A DNA stretch of 25,963 nt from a virus (Duplodnaviria; Heunggongvirae; Uroviricota; Caudoviricetes). Under the pieces are notes generated by a model. That model searched no databases and was not told the DNA's origin. It worked only from the letters and a program-made list of their open reading frames with translations. The stretch is taken from the IMG/VR virus record IMGVR_UViG_2563366982_000005. One strand, 5' to 3'. Within the stretch, counting starts at the first letter, position 1; every line of letters begins with the position of its first letter. The translations under genes were made by a program, and so were the position numbers. Positions 4,533 to 22,880 of this stretch are shown here, piece by piece.

Positions 4533-4589
4533 AAAAGGGCGGCAGAGCAGTCACGGAGTAAAACTGATACCGCCAAACGTCACCAGAAA
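4533..4589 (-). ncRNA. dicF: DicF small regulatory RNA
   Basis: Minus-strand sequence UUUCUGGUGACGUUUGGCGGUAUCAGUUUUACUCCGUGACUGCUCUGCCGCCCUUUUU matches the DicF sRNA as I recall it, ending in a GC stem plus U-run intrinsic terminator; positioned between ydfC-like genes and dicB. Confidence 0.7.
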
Positions 4590-12882: not shown

Positions 12883-14030
<1,148 letters not shown>

Positions 14031-14254
14031 TATGGCACCTGTGTTGTTCTGAGGTGAGCATATCACCTCTGTTCAGGTGGCCAAATTCAGTAAACCACTT
14101 CAGTCTCAGGCATGAACACCAAAAGGCAGATAGAGAAAAGCCCCAGTTAACATTACGCGTCCGGCAAGACGCTTAACATTAATCTGAGGCCATATCTATG
14201 CTCTACACACGTAGGTTAGCCTCTTACGTGCCGAAAGGCAAGGAGAAGCAGGCT

Positions 14255-14479: not shown

Positions 14480-14500
14480 ACCCGCTTCGGCGGGTTTTTG
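14480..14500 (+). terminator. Intrinsic terminator downstream of hokD
   Basis: ACCCGC-TTCG-GCGGGTTTTT: GC stem, tetraloop, U-run. Confidence 0.6.
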
Positions 14501-14510
14501 CATTAGTCTG

Positions 14511-14545
14511 GTTGACAAAAATAGAAAAATGCGAAAATATGTGGT
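14511..14545 (+). promoter_or_regulatory. Candidate promoter for the two-gene cassette
   Basis: Perfect -35 TTGACA at 14511-14516 followed at ~17 bp by an A/T-rich -10-like region (AAATAT); about 30 bp upstream of cassette gene A; prediction by eye. Confidence 0.3.
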
Positions 14546-14575
14546 TTACGAATTCTAAAAAAAGCGAAACTTGAA

Positions 14576-15226
14576 ATGAATGAAAATCAGTTAGCTCCTT
14601 GTTGGGAATTTCAACCTTATCTTGCTGAAAACTATGTTCGCCACTTGTTGGCGGAGATCGCTAACGTACTTGAGCAGCTGTACTATCATAAGCACGCATT
14701 AGACAGCAACTGGTCTGAAGGTGTAAGGGCTTATGATTGGGTCAGAAATCATCTTATTCAAAATGAAGATGCAATTCCTGGCCTTGAGATGATTTCCAAG
14801 GGGTTGGACTATGTAGTTGCTTTAAATAAAGTTCCGCTACAATTTACCAAAGATTGCATTAATAACCCCAAAAAGAAACATCGTCTGCGTCGAAATAAAG
14901 TAGAGTATGAGCAGCTCTCATTGTTTGGTGATGTTGAGGCTGAGCAAGATATTACATGGCGAGTCATAGCTGAGCCTTTTTTATCCGAAGAGGGCGATGG
15001 TGAATTAGAGTCCACACTGCCTCGTTGGGAGGTAGCTCTTGTTGGATTTAATACTTATGGTGCTCAGATTAGTATAGTTTCTCATCAATCTACAGCATCG
15101 ATGCCGCTTATGCCTCTTGATTATAACACACTCCCTGACGAAGCGGAGATTAATAAGGTGCCTCTTCGTCGGCGTACGAAGGATAAAGATTTGGATGTGA
15201 GCAGTGATGGAACATCAGGTGAATAA
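14576..15226 (+). CDS. Hypothetical protein (216 aa), first gene of accessory cassette; contains QLSLF motif
   Basis: Track ORF; no recognised domain; basic patch NPKKKHRLRRNK followed by EQLSLFGD (residues 113-117 match the beta-clamp binding pentapeptide consensus QL[SD]LF); 3' end overlaps gene B start. Confidence 0.55.
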   Translation: MNENQLAPCWEFQPYLAENYVRHLLAEIANVLEQLYYHKHALDSNWSEGVRAYDWVRNHLIQNEDAIPGLEMISKGLDYVVALNKVPLQFTKDCINNPKKKHRLRRNKVEYEQLSLFGDVEAEQDITWRVIAEPFLSEEGDGELESTLPRWEVALVGFNTYGAQISIVSHQSTASMPLMPLDYNTLPDEAEINKVPLRRRTKDKDLDVSSDGTSGE

Positions 15227-16310
15227 CTTCACTGAGTATCGGGGTGATAAGCTCAAACTAGCGAGAATGGCTGTTGGGCTTTCTTGTGAAGAGTTAGCCG
15301 AAAAAATTGGCAAGACAAAGCAATTCGTTAGCAAACTGGAGAAGGGGTGCAGGCCATCGGAGCAATGTCTTGAGTTAATATCTTCAGCGCTTATGATTAA
15401 GTCCAGTTTTCTTTTTACTGAACGAAAATACGCTCTGGAAAGTGATGTCTGCCATTTTCGGAGTAAGAAGTCCAGGACTCAAACGCTGACTAATAGTGTA
15501 TTGGCCAGGGCTGAGATTCTTAATATTATAATTTCTGCTGTTGAAGGTGAAATCGAATTTCCTGACGTTAACATACCGGAGCACCCAGGGGCTGAATTAC
15601 TTACTCCGAATGATATTGAGCGAGTGGCAGAAGATTGTCGCCGTGCCTGGAATTTAGGTCTTGGCCCTATATCATCAATGGTTAAATTGGCGGAGAGTTT
15701 AGGGGTAATCGTTGCGCATGTTACGGGAGTCGATGATCGTGTTGATGCTTTTACTGTTCACAATAACAGGCCTGTTATCATCAGGAACAATGTTAAAAAA
15801 AGCATATGTAGATTTCGCTCTGATTTAGGTCATGAATTAGGGCATTTAGTAATGCATGAGGGCATAACGACAGGTGATAAACTTACGGAATCACAAGCCG
15901 ATCACTTTTCGAGCGCCTTATTAGTTCCCAGGTTATCTTTCATTAAAGAATTTCCACGAATACGAGGTAAGCAATTCGACTGGAATGCTCTGGTTGAATT
16001 TAAACTTAGATGGAAAATCAGCCTTAAAATGTGTATTTATCGAGCCAGCGCATTAGGCTTATTGACCCAGGAACAGGCAAGAACTGGCTATATGCATCTT
16101 AATTCCAGAGGGTATACGAGAGTTGAACCTGGTGATGAACTTTTGCGCCCTGAAGAACCCGGCATGCTGGCCGAGGCGATTGAAATGCTGGATGATGCAA
16201 CCTGGCTAAGAATTCTTATGAAAACTGGCTTGAGCCAAGATTTAATTCGTGAGTTGTTCTCCATCAACAGACCTATTACAAATCCAAGAAATATTTTCCA
16301 GATTGTTTGA
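15207..16310 (+). CDS. XRE-family HTH fused to ImmA/IrrE-type (M78/COG2856) zinc metallopeptidase
   Basis: N-terminal HTH (LKLARMAVGLSCEELAEKIGKTKQFVSKLEKG); HEXXH motif (GHELGHLVMHEG) about 200 aa in; ATG 15207 (track ORF at GTG 15204) overlaps upstream gene end. Confidence 0.75.
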   Translation: MEHQVNNFTEYRGDKLKLARMAVGLSCEELAEKIGKTKQFVSKLEKGCRPSEQCLELISSALMIKSSFLFTERKYALESDVCHFRSKKSRTQTLTNSVLARAEILNIIISAVEGEIEFPDVNIPEHPGAELLTPNDIERVAEDCRRAWNLGLGPISSMVKLAESLGVIVAHVTGVDDRVDAFTVHNNRPVIIRNNVKKSICRFRSDLGHELGHLVMHEGITTGDKLTESQADHFSSALLVPRLSFIKEFPRIRGKQFDWNALVEFKLRWKISLKMCIYRASALGLLTQEQARTGYMHLNSRGYTRVEPGDELLRPEEPGMLAEAIEMLDDATWLRILMKTGLSQDLIRELFSINRPITNPRNIFQIV

Positions 16311-16314
16311 GTAT

Positions 16315-16336
16315 ACCCGCTTCGGCGGGTTTTTTG
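16315..16336 (+). terminator. Intrinsic terminator downstream of cassette (near-identical copy of the hokD terminator)
   Basis: ACCCGCTTCGGCGGGTTTTTTG; the 20-bp core ACCCGCTTCGGCGGGTTTTT is identical to 14480-14499. Confidence 0.6.
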
Positions 16337-16419: not shown

Positions 16420-16641
16420 ATGGACCCCGAACAGGGGGAGTGCTATTTATCTGGAAGGATTCTGTTGATGAAAATCGAAGAATTACGTGAAATTTTTAGT
16501 GAAGATGGCCTCTATGCTGTGCGCGTTGAGAATGGGGGTATTACCTACACAGCGTTAATTCCTGATGATCATGTAGTGTTATCTGTTGAGGCATTCATTG
16601 AATACTTGGAAAGACTCGGTTTCAAGGTAGTTCGGGAATAA
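16420..16641 (+). CDS. Hypothetical small protein
   Basis: Track ORF (73 aa); alternative start at internal Met (MKIEELREIF) also possible. Confidence 0.4.
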   Translation: MDPEQGECYLSGRILLMKIEELREIFSEDGLYAVRVENGGITYTALIPDDHVVLSVEAFIEYLERLGFKVVRE

Positions 16642-20899: not shown

Positions 20900-20975
20900 G
20901 GCCCTTTAGCTCAGTGGTGAGAGCGAGCGACTCATAATCGCCAGGTCGCTGGTTCAAATCCAGCAAGGGCCACCA
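20900..20975 (+). tRNA. tRNA with CAU anticodon (Ile2-lysidine or Met type)
   Basis: 76 nt, acceptor stem GGCCCTT/AAGGGCC, anticodon loop CTCATAA, T-loop GGTTCAAATCC, 3' CCA encoded. Confidence 0.8.
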
Positions 20976-20984
20976 TATCACATA

Positions 20985-21061
20985 CCGCCATTAGCTCATC
21001 GGGATAGAGCGCCAGCCTTCGAAGCTGGTTGCGCGGGGTTCGAGTCCTCGATGGCGGTCCA
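20985..21061 (+). tRNA. tRNA-Arg (anticodon UCG)
   Basis: 77 nt, acceptor CCGCCAT/ATGGCGG, anticodon loop CTTCGAA, T-loop GGTTCGAGTCC, CCA encoded. Confidence 0.75.
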
Positions 21062-21075
21062 TTTATCGGCATTCT

Positions 21076-21152
21076 GCGTTGTTAGCTCAGCCGGACAGAG
21101 CAATTGCCTTCTAAGCAATCGGTCACTGGTTCGAATCCAGTACAACGCGCCA
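21076..21152 (+). tRNA. tRNA-Arg (anticodon UCU)
   Basis: 77 nt, acceptor GCGTTGT/ACAACGC, anticodon loop CTTCTAA, T-loop GGTTCGAATCC, CCA encoded. Confidence 0.8.
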
Positions 21153-21950: not shown

Positions 21951-22178
21951 CTCACAATTCAGGCGGTTGACTGTTGTCTGGTTTGCGGGGAGTTTGTTAA
22001 AAGAAACTGGCATGGTGAATCCCCCTGTGCGGAGGGGCAATCAGCAACTGGTGTTTTGTCACCGACCCTTATCCTTTCTGTGCGGGTTCAGGTGCTGATA
22101 CTGAACTCACCGGGAGGCACCCGGCACCATGCAATGGCACATAGTGCCACTCTCCAGCCCCTCTCCGGAGGGGCTTTT
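21951..22178 (+). repeat. Structured repeat element, copy 1 (conserved hairpins plus terminator)
   Basis: Shares with copy 2 the blocks CTCACAATTCAG..TTGAC, TTTGTTAAAA, GCATGGTGAATCCCCCTGNGCGGAGGGGC, CTGAACTCACCGGGAGGCACCCGGCACCATG and AGCCCCTCTCCGGAGGGGCTTT; ends in a GC hairpin followed by a T-run. Confidence 0.6.
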
Positions 22179-22369
22179 CTGTGCCGGATACATCACAGTT
22201 TCTGGAACCTTAGGTACTACAGTATCAGTCAGGGTGCTATATTTTCAGATGTGATGAAAGCCTGTCAGCAGGCAGGGCGTATCGGAAATGACCCAGTAGA
22301 GAAAACGTTGACTCAGATACCGGTGCTGAGTTACCGGGAAACCGGCATCACATGACCGCTATCCTTCCA

Positions 22370-22433: not shown

Positions 22434-22665
22434 CTCACAATTCAGTAAGTTGACAGTTGCCTGTCAGACTGGGCATTTGTTAAAAAAATTTCGCATGGTG
22501 AATCCCCCTGAGCGGAGGGGCGACTGGTGACGGTATAATCTCTGATTATCAAAACGAGAATGACGCGGGTTTAGTGGCACCGGGCTGAACTCACCGGGAG
22601 GCACCCGGCACCATGTGCATGATGATACAGATACGCGGCTTTAGCCCCTCTCCGGAGGGGCTTTC
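22434..22665 (+). repeat. Structured repeat element, copy 2
   Basis: Same conserved blocks as copy 1 in the same order, with divergent spacers; terminal hairpin GCCCCTC-TCCG-GAGGGGC plus T-rich tail. Confidence 0.6.
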
Positions 22666-22880
22666 TTGTGGGCAAAAAAAGCCCGAGTGGGTTCGGGCAA
22701 CAGCATGAGATATACATTTTTATAATCGAATGGATTTTAACCAGAATTCATAAGGCTGCGCAACTGCGCGGTCTTTTTCGAATTGCGGGCTGTCGTCTCT
22801 CTTCTGCCATTGTCCTGTAACTTCCGGACTTCAGCCCGCTCCTTATTTTACTCACAATATTATCCCGGCCGGGAGGATTC

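Follow-up and report, generated by a model that had tools for sequence, protein, structure and literature searches.

A probable RosmerTA toxin-antitoxin moron behind the hok/sok terminator of an E. coli lambdoid prophage carries a candidate sliding-clamp-binding motif in its predicted toxin

RosmerTA is a validated family of toxin-antitoxin phage-defence systems whose antitoxin combines a helix-turn-helix (HTH) with a Zn-peptidase, and whose toxins were described without a known function (Millman et al., bioRxiv 10.1101/2022.05.11.491447). Protection against phages has been reported for two systems: the RosmerTA of E. coli OLC-716, to whose family the E101 prophage toxin-antitoxin pair described by Rousset et al. 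2021 also belongs, and the system of Gordonia phage Kita (PMC10440598). In the verified OLC-716 system a deletion of the antitoxin gene rmrA was unobtainable, and carrying a Rosmer system makes ClpX or ClpP essential. The toxin (RmrT) of Kita depolarises membranes (PMC10440598), and Rosmer toxins therefore do not all share one target.

Two further systems connect toxins with the beta sliding clamp. The RipAB pair (Spr1630/Spr1629) of S. pneumoniae (PLoS Genet 2025, PMC12795458) is of the Rosmer family, as RipA matches the RmrT model PDLC03931 and RipB matches the antitoxin, RmrA. RipA binds the clamp, DnaN; its suppressors fall in the DnaN pocket that takes up clamp-binding motifs, although the paper reports no such motif in RipA (PMC12795458). 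The SocB toxin of the type VI system SocAB from Caulobacter crescentus blocks replication by means of a clamp-binding motif (PMC9690074); the authors of the RipA study found no homology between SocB and RipA (PMC12795458).

The cassette described here consists of two genes on the plus strand of the window, by which we mean the whole stretch of 25,963 nucleotides of viral DNA that was analysed (IMG/VR record IMGVR_UViG_2563366982_000005). In E. coli 042 the identical region is annotated with hokD upstream and rem, DUF968/ydfU, rusA and Q downstream; this annotation and the gene coordinates (Table 1) agree with an initial annotation made from the bare sequence, which had seen two overlapping plus-strand genes between hokD and the ydfU/rusA/Q block. 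Because RefSeq/PGAP starts the identical gene B of E. coli 042 (WP_000401168.1) at ATG 15207, we take the overlap of the two genes to be 20 nt; counted from the GTG at 15204 it would be 23 nt. The cassette had also been called AT-rich relative to its neighbours, and its GC content (0.415 for 14500-16314, against 0.50 in the left flank and 0.51 in the right flank) bears this out. A megablast search of the cassette against GenBank phages gave 0 matches, and a literature search on the accessions of both proteins found no paper.

Table 1. Features of the cassette and its borders, in coordinates of the window
Feature	Position	Strand	Description
Left terminator copy	14480-14499	+	hok/sok-locus terminator; sole copy in empty sites; hairpin
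Promoter-like block	14512-14540	+	-35 TTGACA 14512-14517, 17-nt spacer, weak -10 AAATAT 14535-14540
5' leader (GGTTTACGAATTC..AAAAAAAGCGAAACTTGAA)	14541-14575	+	conserved upstream of gene A; alignment, 17 distinct loci
Gene A (rmrT)	14576-15226	+	216 aa
QLSLF, candidate beta-sliding-clamp-binding motif	14912-14926	+	gene A residues 113-117; helix end, before variable acidic linker
Gene B (rmrA)	15207-16310	+	367 aa from ATG; alternative GTG at 15204 gives 368 aa
XRE-type HTH domain of RmrA	15252-15392	+	residues 17-63, Pfam HTH_3 E 5e-07
Peptidase_M78 (ImmA/IrrE-like) domain of RmrA	15732-16049	+	residues 177-282, PF06114 E 6e-11
Right terminator copy	16315-16334	+	cassette end; downstream continues as in empty sites (GTTTTTATTTTCAACG...)

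Because both proteins match PADLOC RosmerTA models, the cassette is very probably, as judged by homology, a RosmerTA (RmrT/RmrA) toxin-antitoxin anti-phage module. Gene A matches the RmrT model PDLC03929 over its full length (E 4.6e-25), and gene B matches the RmrA model PDLC03943 (E 6e-105) together with 13 further RmrA models. Gene B is 29% identical to the verified RmrA of E. coli OLC-716 (BLASTP E 2e-35) and 25% identical to RipB (E 6e-24). The predicted toxin gene lies directly 5' of a co-oriented antitoxin gene, its product falls in an RmrT family, and the partner is homologous to RmrA. Homologues of the two genes are paired, with the genes overlapping, in 52/52 viral loci, and the pairing recurs in prophages of Serratia, Xenorhabdus and Enterobacter, at three different slots. 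The PADLOC matches, the RmrA homology and the conserved pairing support the initial proposal of a self-contained effector gated by an HTH-peptidase protein in a defence, abortive-infection or addiction module. The type of system is not new, having already been named and catalogued, which the initial annotation had missed; the RmrT subtype to which gene A belongs is a predicted toxin.

The reading of gene B as an XRE-HTH/M78 fusion with an HEXXH motif holds as well. HTH_3 and Peptidase_M78 both exceed the Pfam gathering thresholds, the HTH matches the HTH structures of SinR and the 434 repressor, and the HELGH is found at nt 15831-15845 (residue 209). An M78/COG2856 metallopeptidase and an XRE HTH are also combined in ImmR/ImmA of ICEBs1, IrrE/DdrO and CapH/CapP, and gene B matches the PADLOC models capP (E 1.6e-14) and capH (E 1.5e-4). 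However, those systems encode the HTH and the peptidase as separate proteins, with cleavage of the repressor by the peptidase turning on other genes, whereas in gene B the two are fused and paired with a predicted toxin gene. No CBASS operon, ICE or repair regulon was found beside the cassette, and identity with CapH/CapP of CBASS is excluded by the fusion and by the neighbours hokD, rem, ydfU, rusA and Q. PD-lambda-2 (Vassallo 2022) comprises three genes, encoding a HigB-like toxin, an Xre-peptidase and a P4-type antitoxin; the cassette has only two, gene B misses the PD-Lambda-2_B model, and gene A is not HigB-like, which sets this candidate aside.

The cassette is bracketed by an exact 20-bp repeat, ACCCGCTTCGGCGGGTTTTT, which is present in exactly two copies; 100 shuffles produced 0 matches, and both copies score as hairpins resembling intrinsic terminators. 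The empty hokD-rem junctions of two related prophages (L003 and L004) contain one terminator copy each. Given this empty site with a single terminator, the cassette is therefore an optional insert of 1,835 bp in an E. coli lambdoid prophage. It is carried by 237/5,426 complete E. coli genomes, and at least 1,871 of the 5,426 have the hokD-rem junction without it. Synteny between hok and ydfU, a check that had been suggested at the outset, thus identifies an optional moron that is not universal in related prophages. The duplicated terminator proposed initially stood insofar as an exact repeat flanks the cassette on both sides, but a simple target duplication is unlikely. The right copy probably belongs to the cassette itself and has undergone recombination or conversion with the hok terminator, because homologous cassettes in unrelated prophage contexts end in ACCCGC-loop-GCGGGTTTTT hairpins whose loops differ. 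The near-identical terminators on the two sides may act as recombination handles. In other prophages the same slot holds RelE/ParE-HTH toxin-antitoxin pairs, and the junction behind the hok terminator of lambdoid prophages serves as an exchange point for alternative toxin-antitoxin and defence cargo.

These occupants of the slot, and the adjoining hokD, would also suit a cassette that serves chiefly in prophage addiction or stabilisation, or as an ImmR/ImmA-like stress switch, and that keeps the prophage in its lineage with no role in phage defence. Peptidases of the ImmA/IrrE/CapP type are stress-activated regulators, which counts in favor of this explanation, and pneumococcal RipAB works in competence signalling and not in defence. 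However, the verified E. coli RosmerTA and the Kita system do protect against phages, and the cassette occurs across several prophage slots and genera in the manner of defence morons; we regard an explanation that leaves out defence as improbable. The location, with replication genes on one side and the Q antiterminator region on the other, could instead point to a phage accessory protein that is not a toxin: gene A would recruit the host clamp for replication or transcription of the prophage, and gene B would be its regulator. Phage Mu provides a precedent, its MuC protein being reported to use the clamp for late transcription (PMC12867686). Against such a role, the cassette is optional and changes slots, an RmrA-type antitoxin is always paired with the gene, and rmrA resists deletion in the verified system. 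Moreover, in one genome (FDAARGOS_1249) an IS5 element interrupts gene A while gene B stays intact, a decay pattern that is indirect evidence for a toxin neutralised by RmrA. A non-toxin accessory is, in our judgment, the least credible of the explanations considered.

For expression, the RosmerTA module appears to bring its own signals. The perfect TTGACA -35 box of the initial annotation is present as a hexamer in a conserved block, but the best -10 at 17-nt spacing, AAATAT, has 3/6 consensus matches, and the TTGACA site is absent from the list returned by a promoter scan. The GGTTGACA-N17-AAATAT block is kept in homologous cassettes whose gene A proteins are down to 50% identical, CGAAAATAT is invariant across the homologous cassettes, and their comparison reveals that the promoter block moves together with the cassette. 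The same block may also hold an operator for RmrA; a search for a convincing palindromic operator resolved none, finding only an imperfect CGAAAA/TTTACG dyad.

The gene A product had not been recognised initially. Neither it nor 55 family members match a Pfam or NCBIfam family, and the family profile has no match among PDB sequences; it does, however, belong to a catalogued RmrT family, PDLC03929, which 55/55 of its distant relatives match, and to phrog_5786 (E 8e-85). The AF2 model of gene A (pLDDT 87) has no structural match in the PDB or BFVD. The protein is acidic and has at most 10 hydrophobic residues in any 19 consecutive ones, and thus no transmembrane segment; we therefore rejected a membrane toxin like that of Kita.

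The OLC-716 system (Millman et al. 2022) resembles the cassette in the toxin-then-antitoxin order, in the XRE HTH and Zn-peptidase of RmrA, and in being enterobacterial and associated with a mobile element. Its toxin and gene A are similar in size (216-239 aa), have the same predicted order of secondary-structure elements, which is the only respect in which their AF2 models are alike, and both have a disordered acidic tail as well as a flexible linker containing a clamp-binding-like motif. In contrast, gene A has no detectable sequence similarity to this experimentally verified RmrT, and the two belong to different models (PDLC03935 and PDLC03929). Of the two systems, OLC-716 is the one for which defence and ClpP dependence have been demonstrated.

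The pentapeptide QLSLF of gene A is an exact match to the beta-clamp-binding consensus QL(S/D)LF (PMC9690074), and the six-frame ORFs of the window, 8,739 aa in total, contain no other strict match. In the gene A family the motif column has Q in 46/55 members and L at +3 in 42/55, and a penta- or hexapeptide form of the motif is found in 41/55 members at 15-27% identity, with the form switching between members and a Pro inside the motif in nine of them. A wider regular expression matches 38/55 members against 4.8 expected in shuffles; the motif search as a whole was post hoc. A recognisable motif is missing in 14/55 members. Within the folded core, pLDDT is lowest at residues 111-120 (74), and Q113 to S115 lie within a predicted helix of this part of the AF2 model; some of the conservation could thus be structural.

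Comparable peptides occur in at least four RmrT families (PDLC03929; PDLC03935, the verified one; PDLC03933/34, that of phage Tritos; and PDLC03931, that of RipA), mostly within flexible linkers but N-terminally in RipA. In the OLC-716 family the peptide is QLKLDL, or NLDLF in members from Vibrio, Photobacterium and Shewanella, within a disordered loop; in the Tritos family it is NYELNF or NYDLF; and RipA has an N-terminal NQDLF, in a family whose candidates come from four sequences. None of hmmsearch, phmmer and hhalign detected remote homology between the RmrT families. RipA in particular differs from gene A in its PADLOC model, with a family-versus-family hhalign probability of 0.2%, and RipAB lies on the chromosome of a Gram-positive host and has been studied for its role in competence induction, while our cassette is from an E. 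coli prophage. Nevertheless, the clamp pocket bound by RipA is the one that recognises QLxLF-type motifs (PMC12795458), and QLSLF of gene A is of this type. The beta clamp is thus a plausible target of RmrT, though we place it slightly below an even chance. With somewhat less assurance still, the unrelated-looking Rosmer toxins may represent one functional, perhaps even structural, class of beta-clamp poisons.

Taken as a whole, a RosmerTA moron with a clamp-poisoning RmrT under the control of RmrA has in our estimation an even chance of being correct. Such a cassette would be autonomous in having a promoter and a terminator of its own around two translationally coupled genes, and would be placed in the slot behind the hok/sok terminator. 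The XRE HTH of RmrA would probably repress the cassette promoter, and the M78 Zn-peptidase domain would, most likely in concert with ClpXP, keep RmrT from acting. Should RmrA control fail during infection, QLSLF would insert into the hydrophobic pocket of DnaN and displace the polymerases; replication would then stop in the host and in phages that depend on its replisome, resulting in abortive infection. SocAB offers a parallel, since control of SocB is reported by Aakre et al. (2013) to depend on ClpXP, as Rosmer systems depend on ClpX or ClpP, although SocA, a small proteolytic adaptor, lacks the HTH and the peptidase domain of RmrA. A less likely, though still appreciable, alternative is a RosmerTA module whose toxin acts elsewhere, for example as a degenerate PD-(D/E)xK-like nuclease or another enzyme, with QLSLF being structural or only a tether to the replication fork. 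We down-weighted the PD-(D/E)xK nuclease because no conserved catalytic motif was seen. If Rosmer toxins do form one class of clamp poisons, RmrA and ClpXP would keep them off the clamp, and RosmerTA would amount to a widespread counterpart of SocAB, borne by prophages, that arrests replication upon infection. Bacterial and prophage genomes commonly carry RosmerTA, and the clamp motif, as a specific and testable mechanism, bears on how the toxins act and why ClpX or ClpP is needed, and would join the RipA-DnaN result to phage defence in E. coli.

The exact same slot behind the hok terminator is occupied in Escherichia phage Tritos by another RosmerTA allele (TRITO_40/41). This allele has a related GGTTGACA..AAATAT promoter block and a near-identical terminator, ACCCGCCTCGGCGGGTTTTT; however, its RmrA is only 32% identical to gene B, and its RmrT matches PDLC03933/34 and has NYELNF in place of QLSLF.

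The window is a lambdoid prophage of E. coli; several complete genomes match it with 99.9% identity across 95% of its length. Two overlapping plus-strand genes, here called gene A and gene B (together the cassette), were placed by the initial annotation between hokD and the ydfU/rusA/Q block, and the ORF listing and the annotation of E. coli 042 agree; the latter has hokD upstream and a rem-like ORF, DUF968/ydfU, rusA and Q downstream. The cassette is indeed richer in AT than its neighbors (41.5% GC versus about 50% on each side). The proposed size of 216 aa holds for gene A, whereas 368 aa for gene B corresponds to a GTG start; the RefSeq start in E. coli 042 is the ATG at 15207, which yields 367 aa and thus an overlap of 20 nt between the genes. 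Comparison with the rem annotated in an empty-site locus makes ATG 16468 (MKIEELREIF...) the likely start of the rem-like ORF. Alignment of the window to its closest complete genomes breaks into two pieces (95% coverage), so these genomes probably lack the IS3-family insertion.

Features of the cassette and of the remainder of the window
Feature	Position	Strand	Remarks
DicF RNA	4537-4588	-	immunity region
IS3-family element	12883-14066	-	orfA 13728-14066, orfB 12883-13701; just upstream of hok/sok
Direct repeat AAAAATGCGAAAA / AAAAAAGCGAAAC	within 14524-14571		around -10 element and leader
Imperfect dyad CGAAAA-N7-TTTACG	within 14524-14571		around -10 element and leader
Gene A	14576-15226	+	216 aa ORF; identical in E. 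coli 042 (RefSeq WP_001004956.1); PADLOC RmrT PDLC03929, E 4.6e-25, full length; phrog_5786 (function unknown)
Gene B	from GTG 15204 (ORF listing)	+	368 aa; identical in E. coli 042 (WP_000401168.1); Pfam HTH_3 residues 17-63, Peptidase_M78 177-282; HELGH at residue 209; PADLOC RmrA, E 6e-105, 13 more RmrA models, capP E 1.6e-14; NCBIfam spr1629 repressor/antitoxin family, score under that family's cutoff
Rem-like small ORF	16420-16641	+	directly after cassette; counterpart of rem in Qin-like prophages
Three tRNA genes	20900-21149		downstream of Q
STnc100 sRNA, two tandem copies	21981-22186, 22464-22673
AsxR (anti-stx2) sRNA	22676-22728	-	strand opposite to STnc100 copies

The cassette is an already catalogued RosmerTA subtype of ordinary type in a prophage moron slot; what is new here is one testable mechanistic lead, a clamp-binding-like motif in gene A. 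In the definition of Millman et al., RosmerTA pairs a Zn-peptidase antitoxin with a functionally uncharacterized toxin; a deletion of rmrA was unobtainable, and E. coli OLC-716 is the source of the verified example. The HMM searches that had been advised for both proteins assign gene A to RmrT (PDLC03929) and gene B to RmrA, and the domains of gene B bear out its reading as a fusion of an XRE-type HTH with an M78 peptidase carrying HEXXH. Judged by these PADLOC matches, the suggestion of a toxin gated by an HTH-peptidase appears right in kind, but the system already has a name, and gene A, reported as unrecognized, belongs to a catalogued family: all 55 aligned family members match PDLC03929. 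Gene A has no match in Pfam or NCBIfam and no similarity to the verified OLC-716 RmrT; gene B is 29% identical to the OLC-716 RmrA (E 2e-35). A word-indexed search returned 21 relatives of gene A, all from Enterobacterales and kin such as Plesiomonas, and an exhaustive profile search returned 65 cluster representatives, each about 200 aa long.

The cassette is an optional insert. The proposed synteny check between hok and ydfU found both presence and absence: in PPompW/Stx2_14744 and PhiR42_1, hok and a single terminator are followed directly by GTTTTTATTTTCAACG and rem, and in the window 1,835 bp set the terminator and GTTTTTATTTTCAACG apart. Among 5,426 complete E. coli genomes, 237 carry the whole cassette at about 100% identity, and a search with the two flanks joined shows hokD running uninterrupted into rem in at least 1,871. 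The slot after the hok terminator holds a different HTH-peptidase pair (a RosmerTA allele) in phage Tritos and a RelE/ParE plus HTH toxin-antitoxin pair in strain 2014C-3307; in WP4-W18-ESBL-08 it is empty and rem is absent too. The 14499/14500 junction (compared in loci L002, L016, L017 and L018) acts as a swap site, at which different prophages have another RosmerTA allele, the RelE/ParE plus HTH pair, rem only, or nothing. Strain E1648 has an AbiH gene upstream of hokD. In Serratia prophages the cassette lies between Q and the holin gene; prophages of Xenorhabdus and Enterobacter likewise have it at other positions.

Across the homologous cassettes L036-L088, set against window 14576-16310, conservation is consistently higher in the antitoxin than in the toxin; for example, 85% identity in A goes with 92% in B, and 50% with 63%. 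An IS5 within gene A of E. coli FDAARGOS_1249 reduces it to a 140-aa fragment, and gene B there is undamaged; this is consistent with gene A being the toxin, as a single anecdote from one genome. In viral contig L047 the gene B ORF stops about 22 codons early and gene A is intact.

The identical terminator core noted on both sides of the cassette is confirmed: the 20-mer ACCCGCTTCGGCGGGTTTTT occurs exactly twice in the window (14480-14499 and 16315-16334; no match in 100 shuffles), and both copies score as terminator-like hairpins. The TTGACA described as a perfect -35 box is present at 14512-14517, but its paired -10 is weak and a generic promoter scan did not report it. Across 53 IMG/VR loci a promoter block, GGTTGACA-N17-AAATAT with an invariant CGAAAATAT, accompanies the genes even where protein identity is as low as 50%, and an ACCCGC-loop-GCGGGTTTTT hairpin with a variable loop closes most cassettes. 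Given this pattern, the duplicated terminator is the general terminator-promoter-genes-terminator layout of a moron; recombination inside the hairpin plausibly made the window's right copy the same as the hok terminator. The RmrA operator could be either the direct repeat or the imperfect dyad; close cassettes keep both, and Xenorhabdus has an AAATGCG/CGCATTT inverted repeat instead.

Residues 113-117 of gene A read QLSLF, a candidate motif that fits the bacterial clamp-binding consensus QL(S/D)LF (PMC9690074). The search for this motif was post hoc. In an alignment of 55 family members, the majority with 15-27% identity to gene A, 46 have Q at the motif column, 42 have L at +3, and 41 show at that column a pentapeptide (QxxLF) or hexapeptide (QxxLxL/F) form. 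Variants include QLSLPL (the Hda form), QLSLAF, QLNLSF and QYDLF; nine members have a proline inside the motif, and an acidic, indel-rich stretch follows it. A strict regex matches 8/55 members (0.25 expected from shuffled sequences) and a looser, position-free one 38/55 (4.8 expected); the gene A motif is the sole strict match in the window's six-frame ORFs of at least 100 aa. A recognizable motif is absent from a quarter of the family, and QLSLF overlaps a predicted helix in part. The switching between five and six residues and the tolerance of proline argue for a linear binding motif rather than a packed helix. Our literature search found no paper linking Rosmer to such a motif.

Three other RmrT families show the same pattern; none has detectable homology to gene A, and neither do those that were compared with one another. 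Enteric members of the OLC-716 family carry QLKLDL, and those from Vibrio, Photobacterium and Shewanella carry NLDLF at the same place; in OLC-716 the motif lies within a loop predicted to be disordered (residues 136-157). In the Tritos family the motif reads QNYELNF, NYDLF or NRDLF. Pneumococcal RipAB, whose sequence we obtained through its published primer, is a PADLOC Rosmer pair as well, and RipA begins MLNQDLFD. RipA is the one RmrT whose target is known: two assays show it binding the sliding clamp DnaN, and suppressor mutations fall in the hydrophobic DnaN pocket where clamp-binding motifs dock; the paper makes no mention of such a motif (PMC12795458). The Kita RmrT, however, is a membrane toxin (PMC10440598), a caveat on the clamp reading. 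The verified OLC-716 RmrT has T at position 46, which fits the T46S suppressor of the E101 prophage toxin; the two are therefore probably of the same family.

For this RmrT subtype we propose, from sequence, a mechanism in which the RmrA HTH would repress the cassette promoter and the RmrA peptidase, with ClpXP, would keep RmrT harmless. The latter step is suggested by the E101 system, which makes clpP essential, and by RipAB, whose presence makes clpX essential and whose effect is rescued by RipB overproduction (PMC12795458). Should RmrA control fail in infection, RmrT may fill the clamp pocket and replication would halt.

The AlphaFold2 model of gene A, built from the family alignment, is confident (pLDDT 87, pTM 0.77) and runs through two helices, three strands, short helices, a linker, three strands and a disordered tail; the AlphaFold2 model of the OLC-716 RmrT predicts the same order of elements. 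The tail (residues ~172-216; window ~15089-15223) is predicted to be disordered, and is acidic and conserved. Such tails, with alternating acidic and hydrophobic residues, end all four RmrT families (DLDV..NGTSGE, DIDLDILKTG, EDFEIIP and EIEDKIKIL), and could be an RmrA contact, a cleavage site or a ClpX degron.
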